DNA of 64,000 bases from a virus. Positions 4,082 to 54,228 of the stretch are shown in pieces; position 1 is the first letter of the stretch, and every line of letters starts with the position of its first letter. Below the pieces are notes generated by a model. That model was not told the origin of the DNA. It searched no databases and saw only the letters and a program-made list of their open reading frames with translations. The stretch spans positions 10,568 to 74,567 of IMG/VR virus record IMGVR_UViG_3300031707_000008; one strand, 5' to 3'. Made by a program: the position numbers and the translations under genes.

Positions 4082-4090
4082 GGGGATGCG

Positions 4091-4435
4091 ATGAAAATAT
4101 TCATTGTTTGTCCGGTTCGTAAAATATCGGATTTGCTGAAATCAACAATCGAGGCAAAAATATTAGAATTAGAAAACGCAGGATATCTTGTTTATTACCC
4201 CGCTAGAGATACTGAACAGAATGATCCGACTGGATATTCCATTTGTGCAACGAATAGAGAGGCAATTCGTGATGCGGATGAAATTCTGATCGCGTGGGAT
4301 GGAAGTTCGGAGGGTGTTTTATTTGATATTGGGATGGCATTTATGATGGGGAAGGCAATTAAGATTATAGAACCATTTCCTCCAAAAACCGAGGGTAAAT
4401 CCTTCGCTTCAATGATACGGGAATGGGCAAGATGA
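4091..4435 (+). CDS. Nucleoside 2-deoxyribosyltransferase-like protein
   Basis: KIFIVCP, VYYPARD, NREAIRDAD, SEGVLFDIGMA (Asp at the usual catalytic Glu). Confidence 0.7.
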   Translation: MKIFIVCPVRKISDLLKSTIEAKILELENAGYLVYYPARDTEQNDPTGYSICATNREAIRDADEILIAWDGSSEGVLFDIGMAFMMGKAIKIIEPFPPKTEGKSFASMIREWAR

Positions 4436-4436
4436 A

Positions 4437-4528
4437 TCTCGGCTCGCGGCGGCGTGATAGCGTCGGGGATGCGATGTAGAGCACTTATTAGCGGAGCCGG
4501 TTGTAGGAGCCCGGCCCGCGAGCCGAGA
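4437..4528 (+). ncRNA. Candidate structured RNA, copy A (13-bp closing stem + two hairpins)
   Basis: tctcggctcgcgg (4437-4449) is the exact reverse complement of ccgcgagccgaga (4516-4528); hairpins cggcg/cgtcg and gccgg/ccggc; related copy at 53067-53144. Confidence 0.7.
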
Positions 4529-4542
4529 GAAAAGGAGGCGTG

Positions 4543-4719
4543 ATGGAGGAGTTGAAGAAGTGTGCTCATTGTGGAGGTGTTGCCATTTGGCGCGTTTATG
4601 ATGTATTCACAGGATGGGCACAATGCACAGAATGCGGTATATCCACCCAAACAAGCACGCGAGAAATCGTGACAGAGATATGGAACCGCCGCGTGGAGGT
4701 GAAAGATGAGCAAGACTGA
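4543..4719 (+). CDS. Lar-like (restriction alleviation family) zinc-ribbon protein, 58 aa
   Basis: Not in ORF track; MEELKKCAHCGG...CTECG...EIWNRR; AAGGAGG at 4532. Confidence 0.75.
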   Translation: MEELKKCAHCGGVAIWRVYDVFTGWAQCTECGISTQTSTREIVTEIWNRRVEVKDEQD

Positions 4720-6752: not shown

Positions 6753-8408
6753 ATGCCTTACCCCAACGAGCATGCGTGTAGGTTGCGGCAACCTGGGGCA
6801 TTCTTGCGGAATACTTTCGCAAGAATGTCACGTAAATCGGCTGAGTTTCATAAGGTGTATTCTGTAATCTTAGCGAAACTCATTAAGGATGGTATTCGAG
6901 GACCCTTGACGGAGCAAGCCTATCGTTACAAAAAGTTAGTTTGGGCGGTTTCGCAAGCACGCTCGCATTGCAAGAGTCATAAAGGAATTTCTTTTGAACC
7001 CGCTAGTGAGTCGAAGTACTTCGTTGAATCCCGCATGAAGGAATCTGTGGATGGTTGTTGTGGTGGAGAGGAGCGATGCATGCAAGAACCTGACTTTTAC
7101 TTTGCCCGCCCATCTATTACAGAACTTGCGGGGTCATTAATTTTCATCGATGAATTTCTTGAAGGCGAGTACGAGGCGTTGCATAATGGGATTGTGGCAA
7201 TACGCAATCGGTTGGATGAGGATCTTCTTCTTGGGAATTTTCCGAATCCCATTTTAGAAGAGATGAAGGAGGCAGCTTCTGTTGGTAGATTGGAACCTGG
7301 GCAAGCTTCATTTATAGCGTCAGCGTCTTGTTTATCTCGGGTAGGAGGAAAAAATACGTTTTCGGGCGTAGAGGGTGCACTCAAGTATTTCGTTGACACA
7401 TTCCCAAATACGCGTATCCTTGCGGAGAAGATGATAATGGGTGTTGGATGTCTTCTTATCAAGTCGCATGACAGTGTTCGAATTATATCTTCTCAAGGAA
7501 GAGATTTAACCAGTAAGTTGCCATCTTTGGTACAAGCCGTACTTGCGTTGCCAGATAAGTATGTTACGTTGCATGGAATATTGGAGAAGTGGGAGGAAAC
7601 TCAAACGGGATTGCGCCCAGCAAGCAAGTTGGAATTGATGAATTACTTATTCTTCGCGCAAGACGTTGGAGATAAGACGATTGTTTGCAACGTTGTAGAT
7701 GTTGTTTTTGCTATGGAGGATGTACACAACCTTCCTTTGACAGCACGCAAGACTTTACTTCGTAGTATCTTAATAACTTCTTCAGCGTGTCAAGAATTGA
7801 AGTATTCAGAAAAAGCGATTCCGACATTGACAAAGAAGTTAGTATTGTTGCCATACACAATTGAAATGTGTGCTGGATCGATCTCGCACGCGGTAGAGTT
7901 AAATGGAATCTTGCCGGGGTCGCTTGGGGTTATACTCAAATGCGCGAGTTCAACGTATCCACTTTCTGGAGTTTGTTCTGCTTGGGCAGAACTTCCTCGT
8001 GGGGAAACTTGCAATTGCGTAATTTGGCAGAAAGATGTTGTACCTGGCGGTTTATTCCAGTATCATTTGGGTTTAGGTTGTACTGAGGAAGAGTCCTATG
8101 AGGCGCTAAATGTAGTTTCTCTTCAAAAGGAGGATGTTGTCAATATTGGTTTATCTTCTCCTGTGAGTTTTTCTTTTGGGGAGGGAGAGGTCGTTCGCGT
8201 TAGTTTTGAGAAGATGAACGTTTTTGCCTGCGAAGGGATTTACCGTATAATACTATCGAATGCTAAGATTTTAAGCCAATTCGATGGGGATATAGTGTCT
8301 ACGGTTGCTGAAGTTCGAGAACAAGTTCGGGAGAAGAATTTGTTAATCGAAAGTGACTTTACGCAGAGGCATTTGGAACATCTTTTACGAGAAAGTGAAA
8401 GGCGGTGA
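6753..8408 (+). CDS. PYPNEH N-terminal domain fused to a degenerate ATP-dependent DNA ligase fold
   Basis: Ligase motif spacing retained (AEKMIMG, IISSQGRDLTSKLP, LHGIL, VVDVVF..DVHNLPLTARKTLL, GVILK..S.Y..WAEL) but catalytic residues replaced. Confidence 0.6.
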   Translation: MPYPNEHACRLRQPGAFLRNTFARMSRKSAEFHKVYSVILAKLIKDGIRGPLTEQAYRYKKLVWAVSQARSHCKSHKGISFEPASESKYFVESRMKESVDGCCGGEERCMQEPDFYFARPSITELAGSLIFIDEFLEGEYEALHNGIVAIRNRLDEDLLLGNFPNPILEEMKEAASVGRLEPGQASFIASASCLSRVGGKNTFSGVEGALKYFVDTFPNTRILAEKMIMGVGCLLIKSHDSVRIISSQGRDLTSKLPSLVQAVLALPDKYVTLHGILEKWEETQTGLRPASKLELMNYLFFAQDVGDKTIVCNVVDVVFAMEDVHNLPLTARKTLLRSILITSSACQELKYSEKAIPTLTKKLVLLPYTIEMCAGSISHAVELNGILPGSLGVILKCASSTYPLSGVCSAWAELPRGETCNCVIWQKDVVPGGLFQYHLGLGCTEEESYEALNVVSLQKEDVVNIGLSSPVSFSFGEGEVVRVSFEKMNVFACEGIYRIILSNAKILSQFDGDIVSTVAEVREQVREKNLLIESDFTQRHLEHLLRESERR

Positions 8409-8412
8409 CGCG

Positions 8413-9726
8413 TTGAAAGAAGAGGGTGTTTTTATTATACAGACAGACGTCCCATTCGATTTTCTCATTAGTCCAACGAAAGTCGCTGCTGAGACGGATG
8501 CATCTACGGGAGAAGAGTTGTGGATTTTAGAGGCGTTGGCGTGTACGTCGGACGTCGATCTTGGGGATGATGTCATTCTCCCAATCGCAATTAAGAATTC
8601 CGAAAGCGATTTGCTCGAGTATAGTACCGTCCTCGAGAATCATGACACTGATAAGCGCGTGGGCAAGATAATTGACTCAAGGGCAATTGATGTTGGTTTG
8701 TGGGTCAAAATCATGATTTCGAAGACCGTTCCTGCTGTGTGGCAACAGGTTCAAGAAGGTGTTTTGAGTAAACTTTCTATTCGTGGAAGAATTCTTGAAG
8801 TTATTAAGCATTCCGTGAATGGAAAGCCAGTACGTGGTATTCAAAAGATGAAACTTGTTGAGACTTCTCTTGTGAGTGTTCCTATGAATGTGAAGGCAAG
8901 AGCACTACGGTGGTACGTATCGAAAGCTCTCGACTCCGTCATGTGGGATAAAATAACTCCTGAAGGAGGTGAAAATATGCAAAGGAATCCTCGAGATGAA
9001 ACGACACCCCTCCCTGCGGAGATACTCAAGGAAGCGGTGGTAGTCGAGAATTTGATTGTTCTTCCTGCGGTTGAGCAAAAGTCACTACCTATCGCTGGTG
9101 AAAGAAACGTTGAGATTCCTCCTGAGGTGAATCTTGCTGCACGACCAGATGTAGAAACTCGTAGTGTATTGCACAAAGAGACACCGGATCCCAATGACGC
9201 ACCCGCTGAGGAAGAGACACCGGAAGAGGTACTAATTGAGAAAGTGATAAAAGTGCCTCTTGTTGAAAGTGTAGTAGAAGTTACTCCTTCTGAGATAGTG
9301 AAGGAGAAAGTGCTTCCTGCGGCAGAAGAGTCGGCTAAAGCGATTGCTCAAACGATTAACGTTTTGAAGGATGCTTTACCACACGTGATTGACAAGACTT
9401 CTCTTCCAGGAGAAGGTCTTTCTGTGGAAATGGCGAAGATAGCGAAAGACGTCGTGGATTTGCAAAACATTCTTGTTGCGGTCCAACAGGGTTTGGCGTT
9501 GGCTGAAAGCGTTGAGACCTTGAAGCAAGAGATTGTTGGCTTGCGCAATCGTGTTGAGCAAACTCCTCTTCGTAAGGGTATTGACACCAAGCAACTTCCG
9601 AATGCACTCCCCACCCGCGATGCAATTTTGAAGGAATTGCGTGCATCAGAAGAGTTTAAACTATCAACCGCTCCCGAGCAACTTCGCATGGTGTTGGAAG
9701 TAATTGCTGCGACCATTTCAGCGTAA
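8413..9726 (+). CDS. HK97-type prohead protease fused to scaffold-like C-terminus
   Basis: DLGDDVI, LENHD...VG, GLWVK, LSIRG, LVETSLVSVPMN; acidic coiled-coil tail; precedes MCP. Confidence 0.88.
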   Translation: MKEEGVFIIQTDVPFDFLISPTKVAAETDASTGEELWILEALACTSDVDLGDDVILPIAIKNSESDLLEYSTVLENHDTDKRVGKIIDSRAIDVGLWVKIMISKTVPAVWQQVQEGVLSKLSIRGRILEVIKHSVNGKPVRGIQKMKLVETSLVSVPMNVKARALRWYVSKALDSVMWDKITPEGGENMQRNPRDETTPLPAEILKEAVVVENLIVLPAVEQKSLPIAGERNVEIPPEVNLAARPDVETRSVLHKETPDPNDAPAEEETPEEVLIEKVIKVPLVESVVEVTPSEIVKEKVLPAAEESAKAIAQTINVLKDALPHVIDKTSLPGEGLSVEMAKIAKDVVDLQNILVAVQQGLALAESVETLKQEIVGLRNRVEQTPLRKGIDTKQLPNALPTRDAILKELRASEEFKLSTAPEQLRMVLEVIAATISA

Positions 9727-9788
9727 GTTTCTTTCGTATAAAGAAGTCGCTTGTGTTTTTTTCTTTTTGAATTAAGGAGGTGAAAAAA

Positions 9789-10751
9789 ATGGAAAGACCC
9801 GACATTCTAAAGGCATTGTCTGGAGTCGTTGAGAAGGGAATTGCCGCGACTAATATCGCGTCAATTCTGGAGCAACCTGAGGTTGATGCCGTTGTAGCGC
9901 ATCTGATTGATTATCAGAACCCGTTTCGGCAGAATTTGCCGCGTAGGCCTGGTTCTGGTGCGGCTTACTTGTCAAACACTCGTACTGCGGGCAATACACC
10001 CGCGCAGTTTGTTGCTGACACGGATACGCTAATGGAGGATACCGGAACGTATGGACGCATACCTTGGACGTACAAGACTATTGCGACGCGTGGAAAGATC
10101 ACGCGTAAGGCGCAAAAGATTGGGATGTCTTTGTTGGACATCATGGCGGAAGAGTTAGAAGGGAAATCGGAAGACTTCCGCAACTACGAAGAGTGGGCCA
10201 TTATCTATGGTAACTCCTCCACAGCGACACAATTCGATGGACTCGACAAGATTTTCGTTGTGACGACTCCGGGAGCGCAATGCGTTGCAATGACGACAAC
10301 GTCTGGCGGTCAAGCACTTTCGTTGACGAAGCTTGATCAGGCAATTGATAAGTGTGCACTACCTCCGAACATGCTTGTGATGTCTCGGAGGACGCGGAGG
10401 CAGTTGAGAACCCTTCTTCAGGCAAGTCAACGCTTTGTAAATACAGTAGAGGTGGTTGGTGGATTCAAGGTGTTGTCGTATGACGATATCCCGGTCTTTG
10501 TTTCGACGCAGATTTTGGATACGTATACGTTCAACGGTACTGCCGATTCTGCATCTACAGGTGGAACTTGCACGAATCTTTACGCGTTGAATACCGCGGA
10601 TTGCTTCATGTCGGTTTTAACGGATGTGACCGTGGAGCCGTTGGCGAAGGATTCTTCGCAATACCAACAGTTTGACATTTACGAGGATGTAGCTCTCGTA
10701 ATGAAGAACATAAAGAAGCATGTGTGCTTAATCGGTATCAAGGATTCGTAA
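9789..10751 (+). CDS. Major capsid protein (HK97 fold)
   Basis: 320 aa, strong AAGGAGGTG SD, follows protease; IIYGN..QFDGL, LTKLDQAID, YDDIPV. Confidence 0.88.
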   Translation: MERPDILKALSGVVEKGIAATNIASILEQPEVDAVVAHLIDYQNPFRQNLPRRPGSGAAYLSNTRTAGNTPAQFVADTDTLMEDTGTYGRIPWTYKTIATRGKITRKAQKIGMSLLDIMAEELEGKSEDFRNYEEWAIIYGNSSTATQFDGLDKIFVVTTPGAQCVAMTTTSGGQALSLTKLDQAIDKCALPPNMLVMSRRTRRQLRTLLQASQRFVNTVEVVGGFKVLSYDDIPVFVSTQILDTYTFNGTADSASTGGTCTNLYALNTADCFMSVLTDVTVEPLAKDSSQYQQFDIYEDVALVMKNIKKHVCLIGIKDS

Positions 10752-10768
10752 GGTAGGGGTGAAACGTT

Positions 10769-10815
10769 GTGAAAATGGAGTTGAACTCATGTTCGAGTGC
10801 AACTCCGTTTTTCAC
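10769..10815 (+). terminator. Long hairpin / probable intrinsic terminator after MCP
   Basis: gtgaaaatggagttg...caactccgtttttcac; core ggagttg/caactcc followed by gttttt. Confidence 0.6.
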
Positions 10816-10831
10816 CTAGGAGGAAAACTGC

Positions 10832-11044
10832 ATGTTCGTGTTGAAATACCAAACTCAACCGTGTCCAACTGAATGGAATGAGTTTCCACGTGACGAGACC
10901 ATCAAGGTTGTAAATGGAATTGCTGTAATGGAGAAGGAAGTTTCTCGATTGCATTTGCTCTTTCGGGGGTTTGAAGATATTACGGAGACACCTGAGGGGA
11001 TCGAAATTCGAAAAACGCATGGAGAACGTATTAGTAAAAAGTAG
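10832..11044 (+). CDS. Small hypothetical protein after MCP
   Basis: AGGAGG SD, 70 aa. Confidence 0.6.
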   Translation: MFVLKYQTQPCPTEWNEFPRDETIKVVNGIAVMEKEVSRLHLLFRGFEDITETPEGIEIRKTHGERISKK

Positions 11045-27598: not shown

Positions 27599-28048
27599 GT
27601 GCCTACTTTTGAATATGTTGTTGAAGGTTCTTTCGATGCGGCACATTCTTTACCAAATTATGATGGTCCTTGTAAGTTCTTGCATGGTCATACATGGAAG
27701 GTGAGGATTCTTGTATCAGTTTTCGTGATGGAGCAGTTATTTCGAGAATTAGAAGGATTGTTGATTGATTTCAAGTTGATAAAGAGTTGTTTCCGCAAAT
27801 ATGACCATACACATCTTAATGCTTCCTTCCCGTTTCCCTTTCGCCCAACTGCAGAAACACTTGCGTGTACAATTTGGAGTGATTGTTATAACGCGATTAC
27901 GCGTGTTGATCCGACACTAACAATTCAACGTTTGTGTGTTGAATTGTGGGAGTCTGTTGATTCTTGCGTAACTATTCGTGCGGGTGCAGAATGTGCTTGT
28001 TGTGTTGATACGATGAAGCGCTATGTGGAAGGTTGTATAACTCCATGA
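27599..28048 (+). CDS. queD: 6-carboxy-tetrahydropterin synthase
   Basis: FDAAH, C..LHGHTW, DHTHLN, PTAE, VELWES. Confidence 0.93.
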   Translation: MPTFEYVVEGSFDAAHSLPNYDGPCKFLHGHTWKVRILVSVFVMEQLFRELEGLLIDFKLIKSCFRKYDHTHLNASFPFPFRPTAETLACTIWSDCYNAITRVDPTLTIQRLCVELWESVDSCVTIRAGAECACCVDTMKRYVEGCITP

Positions 28049-28704
28049 TAAAGGAATGTCTTGAGTCCTTGCAAATAACATTGCGTTCCTTGGGTTTACC
28101 CATTGGCAAAATTGATGGGATTTGTGGCCCAAGGACAGAGTTTTGTACAACGTTTGCAATGCATGAACTATGCAAGACGGGTATAATTGAAGAAGTGTTG
28201 CATTCACCCTTGGATAATAACTTGAGTAAGGCACTTGTGTCACTCTTGCAAAGTTATATGCAAACATATTACGGCGTAGGGTGTCGTTTGAATTGGTGGA
28301 TTACGTTGTTGCATCGTCAAGTAGGAAAACCTTACAATTTTGGCATTGAAATTTCCGCGACGGATCCCAATCCGTCAGCATTCGATTGTAGTGAATTGAT
28401 TGAGTGGTCTTTAAAGCAGTTCGACATTGATATCCCGGATGGGGCGAACAATCAATTTGAGTTTTGTGTGAAAAACGGTAGAGTTATTCCGAAGGAACGT
28501 TTGTTGGATACAAAAGGTGCGTTTGGTTTTATTCATGGTAAACGTGACCACTTTGTGGGGAAGATTCACGTGGGTGTTGCCGATGGGGTAGGAAATATGA
28601 TTGAAGCTCGTGGCAAAGCTTATGGTGTAATCGTTTCCCCTGTCGATTTGTCGCGATGGACGCACGCGTGTGTGTTACCCTTTTTGCAAGAAGGAGTGGT
28701 GTAG
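28045..28704 (+). CDS. Endolysin: PG-binding domain + NlpC/P60 peptidase
   Basis: IDGICGPRT; GKPY, FDCSEL (catalytic Cys), HVGV, MIEARG. Confidence 0.8.
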   Translation: MIKECLESLQITLRSLGLPIGKIDGICGPRTEFCTTFAMHELCKTGIIEEVLHSPLDNNLSKALVSLLQSYMQTYYGVGCRLNWWITLLHRQVGKPYNFGIEISATDPNPSAFDCSELIEWSLKQFDIDIPDGANNQFEFCVKNGRVIPKERLLDTKGAFGFIHGKRDHFVGKIHVGVADGVGNMIEARGKAYGVIVSPVDLSRWTHACVLPFLQEGVV

Positions 28705-29336
28705 TGGAAGAAAAAGATGATGTAGAGTGTTGCGAAGCAGAAGAAGAACTTTTTGCAAGATTGTACTGGAAGCGGTTACTACCAATTGCTGTACGAAAGA
28801 TGCTTGATGATTTCGGTTTGGTAGGGCAGCACTTTGTTGAAACACCAGAGCGTGTGACGAAAGCTTTCGCGGAATTACTTGAGTTTACACATGACGATGT
28901 AAGATTGGCGGAATTACATGAATTATTTACGAGACGTTTCTCGACTAACTCGTCGGGTATGGTTATATACCGTGATTTACAGGCGAGTTCTGTGTGTCCG
29001 CATCACCTTCTTCCGGTTTTGTATGAGGTAGTGATAGGGTATATTCCGCGGGAGTTTGTCCTAGGTGCATCGAAATTCGCGCGAGCTGTTCGCGTTATTG
29101 CTGCCCAACCTGTCACACAAGAAGCCTTTACGGACCAGGTTGCAGACGAATTCTTTAAAGCTTTAGACGCACGTGGGGTTATTGTTATGGTTCAGGGCAC
29201 GCATACATGTATGTGTTCACGCGGGGCGAAGACAAATTCGAAGATGTTGACTTCTTCAGTTCGTGGTATTTTTGCTGCAGAAGATACCGCGAAACAAGAA
29301 TTCTTTAATGTGTTGCGAACCATGCCGGGAAATTGA
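28704..29336 (+). CDS. folE: GTP cyclohydrolase I
   Basis: ETPERV, SVCPHHLLP, GASKFAR, QE, HTCMCSRG. Confidence 0.95.
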   Translation: MEEKDDVECCEAEEELFARLYWKRLLPIAVRKMLDDFGLVGQHFVETPERVTKAFAELLEFTHDDVRLAELHELFTRRFSTNSSGMVIYRDLQASSVCPHHLLPVLYEVVIGYIPREFVLGASKFARAVRVIAAQPVTQEAFTDQVADEFFKALDARGVIVMVQGTHTCMCSRGAKTNSKMLTSSVRGIFAAEDTAKQEFFNVLRTMPGN

Positions 29337-29349
29337 GGAGGTTAACTAA

Positions 29350-31035
29350 ATGTGTTCGGTTGGAGGTTTTATTGTACACGAATTTAATCTTGCGAATGCT
29401 TCAAGAATTCAGCGGATTTTGTCTAGATTCGATTCTTTGATTTTAGAAGGGACTGAACGCGGAAGAGATGCATGGGGGAGTGTCTTGTTGTGGAAGGACG
29501 GGGAAGCATTCCATAAGTTGGTGTCAAAGGGAATTGGTTGTGCGACTTCTGAAGAACTTGAAAACAAAATGTGGAAGGGCATTCGGGAATTTTTAACTAC
29601 ATCGCCTAAAGCAAAACTTGTTGCAGGCATTTTTAATAATCGTGCAGAACCCACAACAGAATGGATCAAAGAGAAAACTCTTGAAACGGTACAACCGTTT
29701 TCGTTTGGTGATATTGATCTTGCGCATAATGGTACGATCGCGAACGATAAGGATTTGTACGCAACGTTGGGTTTACCTGTCGGTAGTGTGGATTCTCAAG
29801 TTCTCCCCCGAGTATTGCAATCGAATTGGTCACCGAATGCGCATAGACACTTGGGTGAGTTGTGGAATTTATTCACGAATACTGTAAAGGGGAGTTTTGC
29901 AATTACTTTCTTGCATAAGGCAGATCCTGAGGCACTTTACGTTGGTACAAACTATAAACCGTTGTTTTTGATTCGCGATCGACAACTTGATACGACGTTT
30001 GTCACTTCGATCCCGCATACATACTCAATTTTTAGCGAACGTTCTGCAGCAGAACAAGTTTCTCCATATTCGTGGATGCGCTTAACTGCTAAAAGAGAAG
30101 TTGAATCATGTGATTTGTGGACGGAAGAATCTTTGTTACCTTGCACACAAGAAGATTTGATGTCTCTTAAACCTCGCCCTGTCGTTGTCATTTGCAGTGG
30201 AGGTTTGGACTCAGTAACAGCCGCCACTTTATATGTAAAGGATTCACGAAGAATCTTTAACGTACACTTGTTTCATGCATTATACAAATGTAATGCAGAA
30301 ACAAGTGAAATTTCTGCTATAGAACGTGTTGCCAACACTTTAGGAGTTCCTTATGTGACCGCGTGTGTTCCTTTCTTCAAGGAATGGGGGCATTCTCCGA
30401 TCTTAGATGACAACGTCACCGATTACTCGCATCGTAATGCTGGCGAGAGTGGAGCGGAATTTGCCTTCGAATGGGTCCCTGCACGAAATCTTGTATTGTA
30501 CGCGATGGGGTTGGCTTACTTGGAAACGTTAGGTGGTGGAGAGTTAATTTCCGGAATCAATTTGGAGGAAGCGGGTGCGTATCCCGATAACGAACAAGCT
30601 TTTATACGAGCTTTACGCAAAGTTGTTCCCTTTGCAGTGCGTGCTTACATCAACATTCGATTGCAATTACCGGTTGCAAATTTGATGAAGCACGAGATCG
30701 TGAAGTTGGGAATTGGTCTTGATGCGCCTCTTCAACATACATGGAGTTGTTACAATAGTGCAAAACAACATTGTGGATCGTGTGGTCCTTGTTACATGAG
30801 ACAAAGAGCTTTTGCGATGAATCACGCGATCGACCCCGTTGATTACAAGTTTGTTCCTGAAGGTTTGTGGAAAGATTGTGAAACTTGGGTTGTTGCCCAA
30901 AAACGAATTGTTGTCAGCAAAGACTTTCAAGAATTGTTAGCAATGGTGAGGTTGCAATGTCAGATGCAATCCTATCCGTTGGAAGTATTTGGACGCGCGT
31001 TGACGCAGTCAATCCCAACGGTTCAGCAAGAATAA
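29350..31035 (+). CDS. queC: Class II glutamine amidotransferase-QueC fusion (Gat-QueC)
   Basis: N-terminal MCSVGG, RGRD, RAEPTTE, QPF, HNGTIAND, DS; QueC SGGLDS, VPARN, YPDN, TWSCY..HCGSCGPC. Confidence 0.95.
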   Translation: MCSVGGFIVHEFNLANASRIQRILSRFDSLILEGTERGRDAWGSVLLWKDGEAFHKLVSKGIGCATSEELENKMWKGIREFLTTSPKAKLVAGIFNNRAEPTTEWIKEKTLETVQPFSFGDIDLAHNGTIANDKDLYATLGLPVGSVDSQVLPRVLQSNWSPNAHRHLGELWNLFTNTVKGSFAITFLHKADPEALYVGTNYKPLFLIRDRQLDTTFVTSIPHTYSIFSERSAAEQVSPYSWMRLTAKREVESCDLWTEESLLPCTQEDLMSLKPRPVVVICSGGLDSVTAATLYVKDSRRIFNVHLFHALYKCNAETSEISAIERVANTLGVPYVTACVPFFKEWGHSPILDDNVTDYSHRNAGESGAEFAFEWVPARNLVLYAMGLAYLETLGGGELISGINLEEAGAYPDNEQAFIRALRKVVPFAVRAYINIRLQLPVANLMKHEIVKLGIGLDAPLQHTWSCYNSAKQHCGSCGPCYMRQRAFAMNHAIDPVDYKFVPEGLWKDCETWVVAQKRIVVSKDFQELLAMVRLQCQMQSYPLEVFGRALTQSIPTVQQE

Positions 31036-36932: not shown

Positions 36933-36979
36933 AAAAAGCTAAAATATTTTGAGAAGTGTTGTTGCAGGAGGGATGTCCG

Positions 36980-37510
36980 TTGACAGAACGAAGTGAGAGA
37001 GAGGCATTGAATAATTGCGAACCCGTCTTAACCCATGCGCAAATTCGTAAAGCAATTTTTCGGATTGCACGCGAAATTGATTCTCGGCATAATGGTCAAG
37101 AGGTTGAGTTCGTGGTAGTATTGAAGGGTGCGTTACCATTCTTTGCGTTCTTGTTAGTAGAATTGGTGGATTGTGGAGTTGGGTACAATTACCACTTTGT
37201 TCGAGAATTGCGTGGTGGAAGGGATGAATGTTTTCTTTTTTCACCCGCAACCGTGTTGGAAGGGAAGATTGTGATCATTGTGGAGGATATTGTAGACGAA
37301 GGACTCACATTGAAGCATTTGTTAAAAAGTATTTGTGGAGTTTGCAAACCTGCTTCAATTGAGATTGCTGCGCTGGTTTCTAGGCAAGATAACCACGATT
37401 TAAAGTTAGATTACACCGGGTTTACATTGCCAGCGGGATACTTATATGGCTTTGGTTTAGACATTAATGAACGTTTTCGTGATTTGTGCAACATTTATGT
37501 GTCGAAATGA
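36980..37510 (+). CDS. hpt: Hypoxanthine/guanine phosphoribosyltransferase-like
   Basis: VLKGA, IIVEDIVDEGLTL, DYTGF, YGFGLD..ERFRDL. Confidence 0.85.
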   Translation: MTERSEREALNNCEPVLTHAQIRKAIFRIAREIDSRHNGQEVEFVVVLKGALPFFAFLLVELVDCGVGYNYHFVRELRGGRDECFLFSPATVLEGKIVIIVEDIVDEGLTLKHLLKSICGVCKPASIEIAALVSRQDNHDLKLDYTGFTLPAGYLYGFGLDINERFRDLCNIYVSK

Positions 37511-37542
37511 GAGAAAATACATTTTTGCGGAGGAAATATCCT

Positions 37543-37917
37543 ATGTTGTGTGTATATGTTGCAGGAAAATATTCTGCTAATAGCGTTCTCGGGGTGTTTG
37601 AAAATATGCGTTTGGGGATGCAAATGTCCGCGAAACTTTTGCATTTAGGGTATGCTGTGTATTCTCCTTGGATGGACTATCATTTTAATTTGATGTCTCC
37701 TGAAGGGGAGATGTGTACTTTAGAGATGCTATACGAAAACGGCTTGGCGTGGTTGGAAGTCTCTGACATTCTTTTCGTAATGCTCGATAGTAAAGATTCC
37801 GTTGGCGTTCAACAAGAAATAGCATTCGCAAACGCCCACGGCATTCCTGTCGTTTTATATGACGTGTTCGAATTGCTTAAACGTTTTCCCCCGGAGGGAC
37901 CAGATGCGACTCCGTAA
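37543..37917 (+). CDS. NDT-like fold protein (DUF4406/DUF1937-like)
   Basis: VYVAGKYS, VYSP, WLEVSD, SVGVQQEIAFA..GIPV. Confidence 0.7.
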   Translation: MLCVYVAGKYSANSVLGVFENMRLGMQMSAKLLHLGYAVYSPWMDYHFNLMSPEGEMCTLEMLYENGLAWLEVSDILFVMLDSKDSVGVQQEIAFANAHGIPVVLYDVFELLKRFPPEGPDATP

Positions 37918-45003: not shown

Positions 45004-45556
45004 AGGAAGAACACGTATTTGTGGGAATTGTGCTGCATGGGAACGTTTGGGTGAAGGATGTATATGGGGAAGGTGTATTAACGATAACGTTCTTGCACAC
45101 GTGTTAGATAGGCGAGTATTTTATCATGAACAGATGCTCCGATGTGCTTTCTTCAAGAACGCTAGTGATCGCGAAGCGATTGCGACGTCTCACCTCAAAA
45201 AGCATTTTGCGAGTGAGGATTTGATTTCTTTGCGTGAACTTCAGCAAGTATCTCATACGCATGCATTGGTGAAGCATTTTTGGGAAGACTCGCTTGATAC
45301 GATTCCTACTAAGTTGGCATTAATTCATTCTGAAGTCTCGGAAGCGCTTGAAGAATTTCGTTGTGGGGGGGAATTGAGGGGTTTTACCCTTGGAATCGAT
45401 GGTAAACCAGAAGGGTTTTCAATAGAGTTAGCTGATATCATAATTCGTGTTGCTGATTTAGCAGAACACTTCGGGATTGATTTGACGGATGCAGTTCGCG
45501 TGAAAACTACTTTTAACTTTACTCGTCCCACACGTCACGGGGGCAAGAAACTATGA
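44996..45556 (+). CDS. MazG-like NTP pyrophosphohydrolase with N-terminal Cys domain
   Basis: LALIHSEVSEALE, ELADIIIR..D, RPTRHGGK. Confidence 0.85.
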   Translation: MGRGRTRICGNCAAWERLGEGCIWGRCINDNVLAHVLDRRVFYHEQMLRCAFFKNASDREAIATSHLKKHFASEDLISLRELQQVSHTHALVKHFWEDSLDTIPTKLALIHSEVSEALEEFRCGGELRGFTLGIDGKPEGFSIELADIIIRVADLAEHFGIDLTDAVRVKTTFNFTRPTRHGGKKL

Positions 45557-46149
45557 AAAAAAAAGCGTTGCGTGTAGTTACCTCCAAGAAGAAACGTCTG
45601 CTGAATAAGAATCCTGTGGAAGACTTGTTGAAACGACACATCCTTTTTGTCCCAGATGACATTTCCGCGAGTTCGTGTGCACAACTCTTGAAAGAATTGA
45701 TAGCAATAGCTACCTCGCGTTGTAGGCGGGATGTACATTTATTTGTGTGTAGTTCTGGCGGGCAGGTTGATATTTCTCGCGCTCTTGTTGAGGTCTTACT
45801 CGCAATGCCGCAGAAAGTTGTGACTTATGGAATTGGAACAGTTTGTTCTGCAGCGTTGACGATCTTTCTCGCGGGCAAGGAACGTATTACACTTCCCAGT
45901 ACGATTTTCTTGTTGCACCAATTTTCTTGGGGGGAGGCTCACGTGAAATATCACGAGTTGGTGGGTCGTCGCGAAATTGAGGATACTGTTTACAAGTTGA
46001 CGGAAGAGTATTACTATGCTCGTACTCGTAGTGATCTTGTTCGGGTTTTGTGTAGGGAAAAGACAGATAAATGGTTTACAGGGAAGCAGGCTTTTACGTG
46101 GAATATCGCAACGAAGTTGGTTGATCACTTAACGATTCCTCAAGTGTAA
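45553..46149 (+). CDS. clpP: ClpP-like protease
   Basis: SSGG, G.VCSAA..IFLAG.ER, LLHQ, DKWF. Confidence 0.8.
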   Translation: MKKKALRVVTSKKKRLLNKNPVEDLLKRHILFVPDDISASSCAQLLKELIAIATSRCRRDVHLFVCSSGGQVDISRALVEVLLAMPQKVVTYGIGTVCSAALTIFLAGKERITLPSTIFLLHQFSWGEAHVKYHELVGRREIEDTVYKLTEEYYYARTRSDLVRVLCREKTDKWFTGKQAFTWNIATKLVDHLTIPQV

Positions 46150-46317: not shown

Positions 46318-46893
46318 GTGATTGTGAAACAGAATGAAGTTTCTGAGAAGAAGTTCGAAGAGGCTTTGAAGGAATTGCAAGGTTTGATAGTGTGGCAGGC
46401 AAAGAGATTTCAACCAAGTTTGTACAGTTTAGGTGCAGAACTTGATGATCTTATTCAAGTTGGCAAGATTGTATTACTTCGTGCCATGAGAACTTACTCT
46501 GAGGGGCATAAGGCGTCTTTTCGAACGTGGTTTACGCAATGTCTCGAAAATGAATTTCGCGAAATGGCGGATTCGGCAAAAGTTCGACAACGCGTTGCTT
46601 TTTACGAAGATATTTCGCCTTTGTGTATGGGGATGACTTCACAACCCGTTGGGGATGAACATCTTTACGTCGAAGAGATATCGGCACGATTAAGTCAGAA
46701 GGCGCGTTCAATTTTTATGTGTCTTGTTAGACCGTCTATGGAGTTTATGGAGTTTGTACTTGAACGTAAGGCGGGAAGAAGTCTGGTAACGGTAAATCAA
46801 ATCGACATTGCTGAGTTTCTTCACTTGTCTGACGTTTGTGTGGGCGACTACATGAAAGAAGTTCGTAAAGTTTCTTTGGAGATTTTAACATGA
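46318..46893 (+). CDS. RNA polymerase sigma factor (sigma70 region 2 + HTH)
   Basis: LDDLIQVG.I.L..A..TY...SFRTW; C-terminal QIDIAEFLHLS. Confidence 0.85.
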   Translation: MIVKQNEVSEKKFEEALKELQGLIVWQAKRFQPSLYSLGAELDDLIQVGKIVLLRAMRTYSEGHKASFRTWFTQCLENEFREMADSAKVRQRVAFYEDISPLCMGMTSQPVGDEHLYVEEISARLSQKARSIFMCLVRPSMEFMEFVLERKAGRSLVTVNQIDIAEFLHLSDVCVGDYMKEVRKVSLEILT

Positions 46894-49017: not shown

Positions 49018-49878
49018 GTGAAGTTGGCGTTTGAAGTGCCTTTAACTTGCTTGGAATTTTTTGAACCCTTAGAGGATTATGGTTTTGCTCTTTCGAAATA
49101 TGTTTTGTCGGATGCGAATTACGCAGCGTTTTTTCGTAAAAGGTCCCCCACGATTCTTGATTGTATGACGTATGAGGAAGGGGATTCTGGATCGTTCGAG
49201 TCCATTCTACAGGCAATTGACTTAATTGATCCGAGTGCAATTATCATTCCGGATACGTTGTACGAATGTGATAAGACAATCGAGAAGGGTCGAAATTTTA
49301 TTCAATTGTTAAAGAAGACGCAGTTGTGGAAAGGTCAATCATTGATTGGGGTGTTGCAAGGACGTACACCGGACGAATATATGAAGTGCTTGCACTTTTT
49401 TCGCTCGTACACGGACTTTTTCGCGTTACCTACTTCTCCTCGTATTGGGGAAGAGGCTGCCGAAGGGGTTTCACTCAAGGAACGTTTGGAGTTGCGTTCG
49501 GCTTTTCGCGCAAGAATTCTTCAACAATTAAGATTCGAGTCAGGAGAAAGTGTGCATTTGTTAGGAATAGACAACCCAATTGAGGTGAGTTTCTTCAAGG
49601 AATTTCCCTTTATTGTTTCTGCGGATACATCAAAACCGATCAAATATGGTTTTGCTGATATTATGTTTGAACCCCTACAAGGGTTACCTGAAGACGCATC
49701 ATTAAATGTTCGTAAGGATATGCTAGTTGAAGAATTGAATCGTGGGGCGCTATATCGTGCTGCTTATAACATTATCGTGATGCGTTATTGGTTGGGTGAG
49801 TCCTTTGATAGTGTGTTTGCAAAGTTATTGCGCTTGACTCGTGGGGCGTTTGTGTTTGGAAGGTCACCAGTCGCATGA
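49018..49878 (+). CDS. TGT-fold protein, candidate DNA base-exchange transglycosylase (DpdA-like)
   Basis: ILD, IIPD, GVLQG, VHLLG, SADTS in TGT order; adjacent to DNA polymerase; complete preQ0 pathway in window. Confidence 0.65.
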   Translation: MKLAFEVPLTCLEFFEPLEDYGFALSKYVLSDANYAAFFRKRSPTILDCMTYEEGDSGSFESILQAIDLIDPSAIIIPDTLYECDKTIEKGRNFIQLLKKTQLWKGQSLIGVLQGRTPDEYMKCLHFFRSYTDFFALPTSPRIGEEAAEGVSLKERLELRSAFRARILQQLRFESGESVHLLGIDNPIEVSFFKEFPFIVSADTSKPIKYGFADIMFEPLQGLPEDASLNVRKDMLVEELNRGALYRAAYNIIVMRYWLGESFDSVFAKLLRLTRGAFVFGRSPVA

Positions 49879-52382
49879 GTTTTTGTGGAAGATGCGAGTT
49901 ATGTAAGGGTTTACCCCCACAATTTCGCCATCCTACTGAAGGTGTTGGAAATCCTCATGCTGAAATAATGTTCGTAGGAGAAGCACCAGGTTATAACGAA
50001 ATGGTGCAAGGTCAACCCTTTGTGGGGAGAGCAGGGAAAGTCTTAGATAAAATGTTGTCTGTTATGGGGTTATGGCGCGCGGATGTTCGCCTTGAAAATG
50101 CAGTAAGATGCAAACCCCCCGACAATCGCGATCCGAACAAACATGAGATGGTGGCATGCAAACCCTATTTGGATGACACGATTGTGAAGTTAAAACCCAA
50201 GTTGATTGTTACTTTGGGGCACATTCCGTTGGAGACGCTTTTAGGTTTCAAGACAATTACTGCTGGTAGAGGTGTTCACAAACTCGAAGTTGAAAATCGT
50301 TCTGGTGAAAAACATGTTTGTTGGTGTTGCAGTACTTACCACCCCGCAGCCGTTTCTCGTAATTGGGGTTTGCTTGAATCAGTTTTGTGTGATATCGAAC
50401 GTTTTTTGACGTTTAAGGATCAACCAATTACTGCCTCCGTCCCGCCGTTCCAACCAATTTACCGAATTTTAACGGTGGAAGACATGGTGAAATTGGCTGC
50501 AACAACCACCGGAAGAATTTTTTCTCTCGATCTAGAAACGACAGGGTTTCATTGGAGACGCGATAAGATTTTATGCGCGGGTTTTTGTGATGTGGAGGTA
50601 TCTTTGCAAGAAATGGTTTACATTCTTCCTTTGCACGGATATGCTACTACAAAACTTTGCACAGAGTATTGGACGCCTGAAGATAAGGCAATTGTACTCG
50701 CTGCCTTCAAGAAGTTCTTGAGCAATAACCGTTTCTTTGGGCACAACATCAAGTTTGATTTTCGGTTTTTGTTAGCGCAATTGGGTGTCGAATTGGATAT
50801 TGAGTTTGACACCATGTTGGCACATCATACGTTAGATGAGAATTCACCCCACGATATTTATTATTGTGCTGCAACATATCTCGGAATCGATCGTTGGGAC
50901 AATAACTTGAAGGCTTACTTGCCAAATAGCAAAGTACCTTATAGTCGCGTTCCTAATGTGGTTTTGTGGGAGTACTTGTCGAAGGATGTTGCGTCATGCA
51001 AGTTGTTGCGTGAGGTTTTCTTGCGTCGCTTGAAAAAGGAAAATTTGCTCGATTTTTATAAAGAGTTTGTTGTCCCAATGATCACGGCCTTGGTGCATGT
51101 AGAGTCACGAGGAATTTTGCTTGATTTGAGTTTGCTTGATGTTTTGAGTGAACAACTGACAAGTGATATTGAAGATAAAACCGAACAGTTATTTAAGTTG
51201 ACGGGTAAATTCAATTACCGTTCGGTACAACAATTGCGCACAATTTTGTTCGAGCAATTGCATTTTCCTACTATTAAGAAAACGCCTACAGGCGCACCTA
51301 GTACAGACAAGGAGATTTTGGAAAGATATCAGAATTTAGACTTTTTCTGTAGTGGCGATAAGACGAGATTTCGTGAAGCAGCAAACGTTCCACGTTTGTT
51401 GCTTGAACTGAGAGGGCTCGAAAATGATTTGTCTCGCTTCAAGAGTGATGCTGGGTTGAAGGCAAGTGTTTGGGCGGATGGAAGAATTCACTCGAACTTT
51501 AACATTCATGGTACGCGTAATGGACGTTTGTCGAGTTCGGAACCCAACATTCATACATTACCTCGAGCGGGGGCTCTTGAGGGGATGGCAAGATTATTGT
51601 TTACTGCCCCCAAGGATTGGAAGATACTGGAGGCGGACTACTCCCAAGCCGAATTGAGAGTTGCTGCTTGGTTGTCACAGGATTACGCAATGTGTGAGAG
51701 TTTTAGAAACAAGAAAGATATTCATGTTCTCTCAGCGTCAGCGATGTACAACAAACCTCCTGAGGAAATCACTGACGACGAACGCTATCTTGCAAAGTTT
51801 ATCAATTTCGGTTTGTTGTACGGACGAGGTTATAAGTCACTTGCAGAACAATTTAAGGTGTCAGAACAACAAGCGCAAGAGTATATTGCACGCTACTTCA
51901 AATTGTATGAGGGTTTGAATCGGTGGATTGATGATTTACATGAGCATGCGAAGGCGTTGGGGGAATTGCGGAATGTCTTTGGAAGAAGGAGAACATTTCC
52001 TGGACACATTAGTGATGAAGAGTGGGAGTTGTCGGAAATTGAGAGGCAGGCCGTAAACTTCCCATGTGCATCAACGGTCTCGGATTGCATCACACGTTCG
52101 ACTATCATGTTAGACAAAGTTGGGAAACAACTTGGTTTGCGAGGCGGAATGACAATGAGTCTTCATGACTCAATTTTTATCGAGAGTCCGCCGGATGAAA
52201 TCCGTATATTTCTTAAACTGATCCGTTGCTTTATGTTGATACCTGTCAAAGGTGATTTTGCGATTCCCGTGGATGTGAAAATAGGTCCACGTTGGGGAGA
52301 TGCGGAAGAGAAGCATTCGTTCTCGGAAGGAGACTACATACCATGGTCGGTATTGAAGGAAGAACTCTTGCCGAGCAACTGA
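49875..52382 (+). CDS. polA: Family A DNA polymerase with N-terminal family-4 UDG domain and 3'-5' exonuclease
   Basis: CxxCxxC, VGEAPG, PFVG, YHPA; DLET, HNIKFD; GRLSS..PN, ADYSQAELR, R..AKFINFGLLYG, HDS. Confidence 0.95.
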   Translation: MSFCGRCELCKGLPPQFRHPTEGVGNPHAEIMFVGEAPGYNEMVQGQPFVGRAGKVLDKMLSVMGLWRADVRLENAVRCKPPDNRDPNKHEMVACKPYLDDTIVKLKPKLIVTLGHIPLETLLGFKTITAGRGVHKLEVENRSGEKHVCWCCSTYHPAAVSRNWGLLESVLCDIERFLTFKDQPITASVPPFQPIYRILTVEDMVKLAATTTGRIFSLDLETTGFHWRRDKILCAGFCDVEVSLQEMVYILPLHGYATTKLCTEYWTPEDKAIVLAAFKKFLSNNRFFGHNIKFDFRFLLAQLGVELDIEFDTMLAHHTLDENSPHDIYYCAATYLGIDRWDNNLKAYLPNSKVPYSRVPNVVLWEYLSKDVASCKLLREVFLRRLKKENLLDFYKEFVVPMITALVHVESRGILLDLSLLDVLSEQLTSDIEDKTEQLFKLTGKFNYRSVQQLRTILFEQLHFPTIKKTPTGAPSTDKEILERYQNLDFFCSGDKTRFREAANVPRLLLELRGLENDLSRFKSDAGLKASVWADGRIHSNFNIHGTRNGRLSSSEPNIHTLPRAGALEGMARLLFTAPKDWKILEADYSQAELRVAAWLSQDYAMCESFRNKKDIHVLSASAMYNKPPEEITDDERYLAKFINFGLLYGRGYKSLAEQFKVSEQQAQEYIARYFKLYEGLNRWIDDLHEHAKALGELRNVFGRRRTFPGHISDEEWELSEIERQAVNFPCASTVSDCITRSTIMLDKVGKQLGLRGGMTMSLHDSIFIESPPDEIRIFLKLIRCFMLIPVKGDFAIPVDVKIGPRWGDAEEKHSFSEGDYIPWSVLKEELLPSN

Positions 52383-52759: not shown

Positions 52760-52783
52760 TTTTAACTTGTGAAGGAGGACGAG

Positions 52784-53050
52784 ATGGATAAGGCAACTAG
52801 GGCGACTCAGGTATCAGAGCAGGTGTGTGCGAATAGTTCCGTTATTGGCACGATTGAGCAACAAACAACAGAACTTTTCAAGAGGTTGAAGCCATTAATA
52901 CGTGATTGCCCTCCTCCACCCCCCTCCGGATCGGTGGACAAAGCGGAAGAAGTTTTAGTCGATCATGCCGCAACCCTAAAAGGAATGCACATGCGACTAA
53001 CGCTTATTAGTGAAACGCTCGATTCTATTATTGACCGGCTTGAATTTTAG
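52784..53050 (+). CDS. Small hypothetical protein
   Basis: AAGGAGG SD, 88 aa. Confidence 0.65.
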   Translation: MDKATRATQVSEQVCANSSVIGTIEQQTTELFKRLKPLIRDCPPPPPSGSVDKAEEVLVDHAATLKGMHMRLTLISETLDSIIDRLEF

Positions 53051-53066: not shown

Positions 53067-53144
53067 TCTCGGCTTGTGGTGGTGCCACAGATGAAAACGG
53101 CATTACCTGATAGTGGCTTAACGGTAGCCGCCCGCGAGCCGAGA
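53067..53144 (+). ncRNA. Candidate structured RNA, copy B
   Basis: tctcggcttgtgg pairs with ccgcgagccgaga (two G-U); hairpins tggtgcc/ggcatta and gtggct/agccgc. Confidence 0.7.
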
Positions 53145-53159
53145 GAGAAGGAGGACGAG

Positions 53160-54050
53160 ATGGATCTCGAGAAGATTAAGAAGCGCTTCGGCGAATTGCA
53201 AACGGGGAGTTATTTCACTCCCAAGCCGGGGCAAAATCGCGTTCGTTTTTTGCCTCCCAAGGAACCGACGGATGTTTACTATCGTGAAGTATACGTCCAT
53301 TGGAACGTTGGGCCTGCTAAACAAATGGTATTGTGTTTGGCAAAGAGTCGTGGTCAAAGGTGTTTCATTTGTGAGCAGATTGCTGCGTTACGCGCAGTAA
53401 ATGATCCCGCACGCGCACCCCATTCGCAAGCACTTGCTGAAGACATGCAGGCGAATTATCGTGCGTATTACAACATCATCGATCTCGGTGGTGACGTTAG
53501 TAAACCCTTGGTGTTTTCTTCGGGTTCAACAATTTTCAAGGGGGTTATGGCATTCGTTGTGGATCCGGACTGGGGAGATGTCACGAATCCGCAGACTGGG
53601 TTCGACATGGTTATCGAGCGTCAAGGAACGGACATCAACACGGATTATACCGTTCGTGCCGTACGCGAACCATCTGCTTTAAAAGATATGTCGATTCTTG
53701 AGAAGATGCGTACGTTGGATGAAATCATCGCGGATTTCACATTTGATTACGAACAGCAAAAGGGGATTTTTGAGGGAACGGCTGGAAATACGCGCACACG
53801 CGCCGGGGCAACAGCTAGTGCGGCGCCTTTAAGTGCACCCACTAAGAGTGTGCCACCTCCAACTGCTGGCGTTTCTCAAGCATTGGGTTCACCTGTAGCG
53901 AGTACTGCATCAAATGATGAGATGAACGTGGATTGCTTCGGCAGGTTGTTCAAAGATGGTGACGAGATTTGCGATGCTTGCGGGAAGAAGGCCGAGTGCA
54001 AAGAAGTTATGTTCCCTAAACCGCAACGAAACGCGCGTGTATCGAAGTAA
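53160..54050 (+). CDS. gp32-like single-stranded DNA-binding protein
   Basis: NRVRFLPP, VHW, C..C.IC, YYNII, DVTNPQTGFD, TDY; start re-set to ATG 53160. Confidence 0.85.
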   Translation: MDLEKIKKRFGELQTGSYFTPKPGQNRVRFLPPKEPTDVYYREVYVHWNVGPAKQMVLCLAKSRGQRCFICEQIAALRAVNDPARAPHSQALAEDMQANYRAYYNIIDLGGDVSKPLVFSSGSTIFKGVMAFVVDPDWGDVTNPQTGFDMVIERQGTDINTDYTVRAVREPSALKDMSILEKMRTLDEIIADFTFDYEQQKGIFEGTAGNTRTRAGATASAAPLSAPTKSVPPPTAGVSQALGSPVASTASNDEMNVDCFGRLFKDGDEICDACGKKAECKEVMFPKPQRNARVSK

Positions 54051-54053
54051 CGT

Positions 54054-54208: not shown

Positions 54209-54228
54209 GAAATTCGAGGTGTTAACTA

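Follow-up and report, generated by a model that had tools for sequence, protein, structure and literature searches.

A conserved block fused to the ribosome-binding site, with a predicted and optional RNA clamp, recurs before different genes in a clade of uncultivated siphophages

In a 64,000-nucleotide stretch of viral DNA (hereafter the window), which comprises bases 10568-74567 of the 74.6-kb IMG/VR virus record IMGVR_UViG_3300031707_000008, an intergenic element is found at two distant positions on the + strand, copy A at 4437-4538 and copy B at 53067-53154. The defining unit of this element is a 3′ block fused to the ribosome-binding site (RBS) of the gene that follows; a clamp formed with an upstream complement is an optional extension. 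Together with the copies found in related phages, these two represent a real, unclassified cis element restricted to one clade. By analogy with leaders described in other phages, the element is tentatively read here as a sense-strand intercistronic leader that may combine signals for processing, stability and the start of translation and that would have been spread by recombination. It is likely to be a leader or processing signal of a kind ordinary in phages and not a new class of RNA. The first-pass annotation of this DNA had interpreted it as a repeated three-way-junction RNA with compatible substitutions, an interpretation that is partly supported by the evidence presented below.

The two copies are identified most directly by a 16-mer, CCCGCGAGCCGAGAGA, that occurs exactly at 4515 and at 53131; with the RBS counted in, the common block amounts to 24 of 25 nt. 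No third site of the 16-mer was found at three or fewer mismatches on the same strand of the window, none of 100 shuffles reached three or more matches, and the whole 74.6-kb record contains only the two copies of the element. Upstream of each block lies a 13-nt complement, at 4437-4449 in A, where the pairing is perfect, and at 53067-53079 in B, where two C>T changes relative to A each produce a U-G pair, on the + strand only. Coordinates, sequences and complements of both copies are as the first-pass annotation had described them.

Predictions with RNAfold place the 13-nt helix at the base of both copies (−47.7 kcal/mol, z −3.2, for A; −39.1 kcal/mol, z −4.5, for B), and the isolated helix has a predicted energy of −27.4 kcal/mol in A and −23.4 kcal/mol in B. 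The minus strands of A and B fold 7-10 kcal/mol worse, and the + strand is the better folder in every copy available. The elements are also islands of high G+C, with values of 0.66 for A, 0.58 for B and 0.77 for the arms as compared with 0.435 for the window. A single inverted repeat of this length is not rare in 64 kb, as approximately 0.2 perfect 13-nt inverted repeats separated by no more than 250 nt are estimated to arise by chance and two perfect 12-nt inverted pairs, both inside genes, were also found in a scan of the window. The significance of the element therefore rests on its recurrence.

This recurrence is not confined to one genome. A scan of JGI metagenome contigs with the 3′ block and RBS returned three contigs, designated L030, L031 and L032, which brings the total to five copies, from four or more phage genomes, with the 3′ block identical in all of them. 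All three come from related phages. L030 and L031 have DNA and protein similarity to the region just downstream of copy A, and both retain the two 13-nt arms unchanged around interiors of 107 and 100 nt, respectively. In L032, the 3′ block and RBS are also unchanged, while the interior is missing and the 5′ arm was not found at up to four mismatches within 1300 nt upstream; the place of the clamp is taken by a small local hairpin, in which part of the block (GAGCC and CCCG) is paired. The flanking genes differ in every copy. Those upstream include a deoxyribosyltransferase-like gene, an 88-aa orphan open reading frame (ORF), a 71-aa ORF and, in L031 and L032, orthologues of 219 and 213 aa that are 55% identical over their full length; those downstream encode a Lar-like protein, a binding protein for single-stranded DNA (SSB) and products of 68, 58 and 154 aa. 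Recurrence of the element before such different genes is not due to chance.

Further copies were also sought in larger collections. An exact scan of IMG/VR with a 15-mer gave 26 loci, all of them chance matches and none with a 5′ complement or an RBS, and a 19-mer spanning block and RBS had no match in that database. GTDB genomes provided a single chance match, within a Lachnospiraceae coding region, and the cultured phages of INPHARED provided none. Likewise, a protein-guided search of IMG/VR with the SSB, the DNA polymerase and the alignment of a 194-aa neighbour found no relatives; the SSB has one distant homologue among 5.8 billion proteins. A fuzzy scan at up to four mismatches gave no further copies across the sequences analysed.

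Alignment of the copies separates two conserved blocks from a variable interior. The left block reads (g)caaga(t/a)g(g)aa(t) and continues through the 5′ arm and, in A, L030 and L031, through cggcgtg; the right block reads (ccggc), the 3′ arm, GA, (G/A)AAGGAGG, 4-5 nt and ATGGA. In copy A, all parts of which lie on the + strand, a purine-rich 5′ flank (gcaagatgaa, 4427-4436; also found in L031) precedes the 5′ strand of the closing helix (tctcggctcgcgg, 4437-4449), which is identical in L030 and L031 and forms the perfect complement of 4516-4528 with a pair probability of about 1. A hairpin termed H1 (cggcgt/gcgtcg, loop gata, 4450-4465) is stacked directly on this strand and is followed by a variable linker (4466-4495) and by a further hairpin, H3 (gccgg.../...ccggc, 4496-4515), that abuts the 3′ strand of the helix (ccgcgagccgaga, 4516-4528; exact in all five copies). 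The element ends in a purine run with AAGGAGG at 4532-4538 and the ATG at 4543 (4529-4545), unpaired according to the partition function. Copy B, also on the + strand, has the same order of parts: the 5′ strand (tctcggcttgtgg, 53067-53079), H1 (tggtgcc/ggcatta with a 12-nt loop, 53080-53105), H3 (gtggct/agccgc, 53113-53131), again abutting the 3′ strand, the exactly matching 3′ strand (53132-53144), and the purine run with AAGGAGG at 53148-53154 and the ATG at 53160 (53145-53162), the RBS being unpaired. Both hairpins are part of the minimum-free-energy (MFE) structure in A and in B. In every copy, AAGGAGG and the AUG have an unpaired probability of approximately 0.9-1, and the pair probability of the helix, where present, is near 1.

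The left flank, for which the purine-rich, single-stranded motif is AAGAUGAAU, offers a clue to the history of these copies. In A and L031 it supplies the final codons and the stop of the preceding gene (in A, the TGA at 4433-4435 of the deoxyribosyltransferase-like gene), while in B the A/L031-type flank is carried as non-coding sequence, cgcaagaaggaat. Because B holds a flank that is coding at an A-type locus, B was copied from such a locus, and because the flank was included, the copied unit exceeds the inverted repeat.

Among the four full copies, the closing helix retains every one of its pairs (100%), of which 11 are invariant and two change from C-G to U-G. In H1, A and B differ by six transitions, through which two pairs change from C-G to U-A and two others undergo one-sided compatible changes, with no pair broken. 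All changes in the closing helix and in this 5′-side hairpin keep pairing, in agreement with the compatible substitutions claimed by the first-pass annotation. The local pairing probability of H1 also exceeds that obtained when interiors are shuffled, both in A (0.94 as compared with 0.24, p 0.01) and in B (0.99 as compared with 0.19, p 0), and the same is found for H3 (0.87 as compared with 0.26, p 0.04, in A; 0.99 as compared with 0.07, p 0.003, in B). The corresponding values for L031 are p 0.14 for H1 and p 0.03 for H3. Of the topology suggested to be common to the copies, what stands is thus the pair of arm-abutting hairpins in A and B and, less clearly, in L031; it does not extend to L030.

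A conserved three-way junction does not survive as the definition of the element. The interiors, of 52, 66, 100 and 107 nt, are unlike one another in predicted branching and show no extra stability relative to dinucleotide shuffles (z from +0.06 to −1.2), and L032 has no 5′ strand with which a junction could be closed. The first ~30 nt of the A interior, including the first part of its linker, align with L030 and nothing aligns beyond; no part of the linker aligns with B or L031, and no pair of interiors aligns in reverse complement. A short-word BLAST for the origin of the interiors against the whole record and the contigs gave nothing convincing. Interiors that vary in this way, with z-scores near zero, fit what is expected of a looped-out spacer.

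Two further observations concern the sequence of copies A and B themselves. Between 53067-53105 and the corresponding 4437-4465, all eight differences are transitions, four of them CpG>TpG on the + strand, and none of the CpGs in the 3′ arm has changed, a pattern that fits deamination filtered by a constraint to maintain pairing. Separately, a 12-nt repeat, ggggatgcgatg, occurs at 4082-4093, at the RBS and start of the gene upstream of copy A, and at 4465-4476, in the linker of copy A. With a BLAST E value of 0.23 against ~87 kb (the record and the three contigs), this repeat is suggestive, and notable only for the closeness of its two copies, ~380 nt apart.

How a module of this kind might act can be outlined from its position and from better studied phages. 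Strand asymmetry, compatible substitutions and a free interior together fit a clamp that operates in sense-strand RNA. Moreover, no sigma-70-type promoter or intrinsic-terminator consensus was found inside A or B and every sizeable gene of the window lies on the + strand, so that the element is placed as intercistronic. As a leader module, it would be read in cis on the + strand of long polycistronic phage transcripts. Its invariant core of ~23 nt, CCGCGAGCCGAGAGA followed by (G/A)AAGGAGG and located 4-5 nt before the ATG, would in four of the five copies be joined by a segment that starts 1-16 nt past the upstream stop and pairs with the first 13 nt of the block. The resulting clamp, at a predicted −23 to −27 kcal/mol, would loop out 52-107 nt of largely unconstrained sequence, with hairpins stacking on both of its strands, and clamp and flanks would together mark the boundary between cistrons. 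The favoured event at this boundary would be endonucleolytic processing, possibly an RNase III-type cut of the ~19-22 bp coaxial stack of clamp and H1; alternatively, the cut may fall in the conserved single-stranded purine-rich 5′ flank. Cleavage of either kind would leave a stable structure at the end of the upstream message or at the beginning of the downstream message. A Shine-Dalgarno sequence that is permanently single-stranded could then provide high, context-independent expression of the SSB, the Lar-like protein and the other downstream products, and recombination within the conserved blocks would move the module between gene junctions. The roles proposed in the first-pass annotation, those of a processing signal, a translation enhancer or a recombination element, are plausible in this light.

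Phage polycistronic mRNAs are cut at conserved stems just upstream of RBSs, as happens through RNase III in T7 and SP82. The T7 R sites and the SP82 early-region sites each consist of one irregular hairpin, ~20 bp long and containing an internal loop; once it is cut by RNase III, the upstream RNA is left with a protective hairpin and the downstream RNA with a short leader. The element resembles these sites in that intercistronic stems with sequence common between copies are repeated directly upstream of RBSs in one-strand arrays; it differs from them in having a perfect 13-bp helix around a multi-branched variable loop. An RNase III substrate spans about two turns of double-stranded RNA; the stack of clamp and H1 is predicted at 19-20 pairs in A and B, is broken by a 2-nt junction in L031 and is missing from the MFE structure of L030.

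A different precedent is provided by the gene 32 leader of T4-type phages, in which a pseudoknot operator and a stable processed mRNA have been described (PMC3014915, PMC535899). The T4 gene 32 mRNA is exceptionally stable and has a structured leader, in which a 5′ pseudoknot is followed by an A+U-rich unstructured tract that overlaps the RBS (PMC3014915); RNase E processing of gene 32 appears among the works in the reference list of that review (PMC3014915). Copy B is similar in that its gp32-family SSB gene, within a polycistronic unit, is headed by a structured 5′ leader. In contrast to the T4 leader, however, the element has neither a pseudoknot nor an A+U-rich tract, its structure abuts the Shine-Dalgarno sequence rather than lying ~40 nt away, and four of its five copies precede genes that do not encode an SSB.

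Several observations weigh against the leader reading. Only five copies are available, three of them from one orthologous locus, and no double compensatory change was found in the closing helix among the four full copies, so that the invariance of this helix could reflect sequence recognition or recent spread instead. Further complicating the proposal, 13 bp is little for RNase III to act on unless H1 really does stack coaxially, and in L030 neither H1 nor H3 is significant relative to shuffles; both are absent from its MFE structure, and a model with both hairpins lies 3.3 kcal/mol above it. Finally, in L032 the clamp is dispensed with and the 3′ block kept, which points to a function of the block that processing does not explain.

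The closest analogues of the element as a whole are found in Cluster K mycobacteriophages, as the SAS/ESAS sequences, and in T4-type phages, as the cassettes known as PeSLs (promoter-early stem-loops); SAS/ESAS is the nearest. SAS is a conserved block that includes a Shine-Dalgarno core and is positioned 3-7 bp before the starts of unrelated genes, and about half of its copies carry an inverted-repeat extension, in which case they are termed ESAS (PMC3203893); the function of these sequences was still unknown in 2025 (PMC12699233). In both systems an asymmetric Shine-Dalgarno block is located a few nucleotides before the ATG of unrelated, non-structural genes (here 4-5 nt, in all five copies), some of the conserved positions are unable to pair with 16S rRNA, an inverted-repeat extension with a variable spacer is present in some copies, the full copies relating to L032 much as ESAS relates to SAS, and occurrence is confined to one phage clade. 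The two systems also differ. The consensus sequences are distinct (GGGATAGGAGCCC for SAS, CCGCGAGCCGAGAGARAAGGAGG for this element), SAS is present in 11-19 copies per genome as compared with two in 74.6 kb, and the phages are unrelated, the terminase of the present one having less than 30% identity to that of any cultured phage. The geometry also departs: ESAS has 17-bp repeats with a 4-13 bp spacer, both repeats lying upstream of SAS (PMC3203893), whereas here the arms are of 13 nt, the spacer is of 52-107 nt and the 3′ arm lies within the block. The element is thus an analogue of SAS/ESAS and not a member of that family.

Departures from the ESAS repeat did not support RNA pairing, and DNA-binding proteins were favoured by its authors. 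By similar reasoning, the 3′ block may be an operator at which a phage or host factor binds RNA beside the Shine-Dalgarno sequence, or the duplex DNA, to repress or activate initiation, with the 5′ arm as a second half-site or a cis-competitor. This alternative is unlikely, while accounting for features that processing alone does not. The sequence itself is conserved, with 13 of 13 nt in the arms of A, L030 and L031, and, by inspection, conservation reaches well beyond what could pair with the tail of 16S rRNA; the authors of SAS argued likewise from positions that do not pair with 16S rRNA (PMC3203893). As the 3′ block is kept without the clamp in L032, it may be recognised in its own right. 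A helix that abuts the Shine-Dalgarno sequence would also suit a repressor that excludes the 30S subunit, and copy B precedes a gp32-like SSB, T4 gp32 being known to regulate its own synthesis through a structured leader (PMC3014915). Yet the remaining copies precede unrelated genes that do not encode an SSB, the leader is G+C-rich without the A+U-rich unstructured tract used by gp32, and no candidate binding protein was identified. An operator is also at odds with the presence of only two sites in 74.6 kb, without a single isolated half-site at up to 3-4 mismatches. Looping of DNA is argued against by arm centre-to-centre distances of 65, 79, 113 and 120 bp, which show no helical phasing. Moreover, every arm and H1 substitution leaves the RNA pairing intact, the G-U pairs forming on a single strand, unlike the departures in ESAS.

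A more speculative version, likewise doubtful, would make the 3′ block an independently evolved second start-associated system, read by a phage or host factor, in which the clamp acts as an RNA switch that hides or presents the block. If true, the clamp could be opened, for example, by ribosomes terminating 1 nt upstream; a portable cassette would then control a small regulon of anti-restriction, SSB and accessory genes post-transcriptionally, and RNA-compatible pairing could make the question of SAS/ESAS function experimentally tractable.

The spread of the element among gene junctions suggests a further possibility, that the conserved blocks are mainly recombination linkers for modular shuffling, with the inverted repeat and hairpins as by-products. 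The model for such linkers is provided by the PeSL cassettes described by Arbiol et al. 2010 (PMC2839356; PMC4122927), short conserved intergenic stem-loops beside variable small ORFs that serve as recombination points for shuffling. Here, the region of each copy is one of small accessory ORFs and the genes on either side differ from copy to copy, the non-coding flank of B corresponds to last codons and stop context that are coding at the L031/A-type locus, and L032 resembles a recombinant that has retained the 3′ block alone. In addition, a 19-nt exact duplicate, gaaggaggacgagatggat, is found on the + strand at 52771-52789 and 53147-53165, where it comprises the RBS, ATG and next codon of the 88-aa orphan ORF and of the SSB gene; the chance expectation of an exact 19-mer repeat in 64 kb is estimated at ~0.007. 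These duplicates bracket the orphan ORF and element B in the manner of a footprint of cassette insertion or crossover, and the bracketed unit recalls the ORF-plus-cassette units for which PeSLs provide the precedent (PMC2839356). As the whole explanation, nevertheless, a linker is decidedly improbable. An inverted repeat is not required of a linker, the G-U-compatible changes in the arms and the compensation in H1 are left unexplained, and arms that remain untouched while interiors diverged by large indels speak for purifying selection and not for recent copying. PeSLs, moreover, combine a strong sigma-70-type promoter with an effective terminator hairpin, neither of which has a consensus in A or B; no U-tract follows the helix here, the conserved part and the RBS form one unit, and a long variable loop is enclosed by the stem. 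The variety of neighbours, B's copied flank and the 19-nt repeat do show the module to be a recombination joint as well, in which respect the linker reading is compatible with a leader function.

Mobile or invertible DNA, whether a miniature inverted-repeat transposable element (MITE)-like unit with 13-bp terminal inverted repeats, an attC-like folded site or a promoter inverton, is very improbable as an explanation of these copies. Perfect terminal inverted repeats around variable DNA and two intergenic copies per genome are what such an element might present, and the one-strand preference for G-T wobble would also fit a folded single-stranded DNA site. The arms, however, are not the ends of the element, as conservation passes the 5′ arm by 10-13 nt and the 3′ arm through the RBS and ATG; inspection of the flanks found no target-site duplication at the arm ends, and L032, which keeps one arm, is not an empty site. 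With the five copies available, reverse-complement comparisons of the interiors all gave p ≥0.36. No promoter consensus is present inside A or B, the arms have no attC core (GTTRRRY; R″/R′ RYYYAAC ... GTTRRRY), and the scanned ORFs yielded neither an integrase nor a transposase.

A known RNA class, such as a tRNA-like structure, a three-way-junction ribozyme of the hammerhead or twister-sister kind, a purine-type riboswitch or another Rfam family, would be suggested by the loose three-helix topology of A and B and by nothing else, and is scarcely credible: ARAGORN found no tRNA or tmRNA in the whole window, Rfam 15 gave no match at gathering thresholds and, at E ≤10, none for A and two eukaryotic-family matches for B (14-16 bits, gathering thresholds 45-55), and an invariant closing helix with free junction and loops is the reverse of the conservation seen in riboswitches and ribozymes. 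The likeness to an acceptor stem and T-arm suggested in the first-pass annotation accordingly falls away, in the absence of an ARAGORN hit, a CCA, a TTC loop or any T-loop, while its statement that the element belongs to no known class is borne out by both programs.

Some other explanations were rejected outright. Coding by the element, including an upstream ORF, is contradicted by frames and lengths that disagree between copies and by the lack of a start codon in B. A start does overlap the upstream stop, as ATGA in A and L031 and as GTGA in L030, where a 50-codon ORF spans the element; an NTG overlapping a TGA stop is expected by chance in three of four cases. Stop-codon readthrough or translational bypass is inconsistent with the downstream frames. 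For a promoter of the phage sigma factor, there is no room for conserved −35/−10 sequences upstream of a sensible start, and B and L032 are without the left block.

The genome in which A and B reside is that of a siphovirus-type phage, with structural genes for tape-measure, Dit, major head protein, head protease, portal and large terminase. Its replication genes include those for a family A DNA polymerase fused to a uracil-DNA-glycosylase (UDG)-like domain, DnaB-like, primase, SbcCD-like, UvsX-like and RusA proteins, and other genes encode a small sigma factor, a ClpP-like protease and 7-deazaguanine-type functions. Copy A follows the deoxyribosyltransferase-like gene (a PF05014 match under the curated cut-off), the stop of which lies 1 nt before the helix, and precedes the Lar-like gene at 4543-4719 (PF14354, phrog_599). 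Copy B follows the orphan ORF at 52784-53050, with a stop 16 nt before the helix, and precedes the gp32-like SSB gene at 53160-54050 (PF08804, phrog_1192). The database call for this SSB (P0001, 319 aa) begins at an ATG at 53091, within element B; the ATG at 53160 (296 aa) is favoured as its start by the AAGGAGG at 53148-53154 and by the alignment to gp32. AAGGAGG precedes an ORF start at nine positions in the window, that of the major head protein gene among them.

A survey of the window for brackets of this kind before an RBS showed A, B and a third spacer at 54053-54209 to stand out, the remainder being like random positions. This third spacer lies just past the SSB stop, where a helix of 13-14 bp (tgtgaacaactggt / gccagttgttcatg) closes ~130 nt and ends ~7 nt before the next RBS; its fold has a z of only −1.2, its sequence is unrelated to A and B, and it has no match in Rfam. 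A strong hairpin with a T-run, resembling an intrinsic terminator or attenuator, occurs at 10757-10832 directly after the major head protein gene, its tail extending into the AGGAGG of the following ORF. Other intergenic gaps (34576, 35285, 47542 and 48922) share recurring TTTCTTGA and T-run motifs. The sigma factor (46318-46893, 191 aa) matches Sigma70 region 2 and is preceded by the ClpP-like protease gene at 45553-46149, and the polymerase fusion at 49875-52382 is a single 835-aa ORF with an N-terminal domain of the uracil-DNA-glycosylase superfamily.

The regions 27599-31035, 36956-37917 and 4091-4435 contain genes for PTPS/QueD-like, GTP cyclohydrolase I, glutamine amidotransferase/QueC-like and phosphoribosyltransferase proteins together with two nucleoside 2-deoxyribosyltransferase-like genes that score below the Pfam cut-off, a set that suggests a modified DNA base. 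As terminase and portal are found at the far end of the window (58905-63058) and protease and major head protein near its start (8353-10751), the record is probably a permuted, nearly complete genome rather than one at CheckV's 52%; another assembly contains an 88.6-kb contig.

With five copies, the case remains modest, and nothing in it points to a mechanism of a categorically new kind. Conserved sequences fused to an RBS, with optional inverted repeats, have been recognised in Cluster K since 2011, and the same logic is now found in an unrelated clade of uncultivated siphophages. What is added relative to SAS/ESAS is a set of clearly RNA-pairing-compatible substitutions and a natural variant without the clamp. 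If the element is a cassette for processing, stability or translation, it would represent a compact, portable insulator of expression, by which expression could be kept constant while genes are shuffled; if the block is instead the target of a dedicated factor, a new post-transcriptional regulon would be the result.

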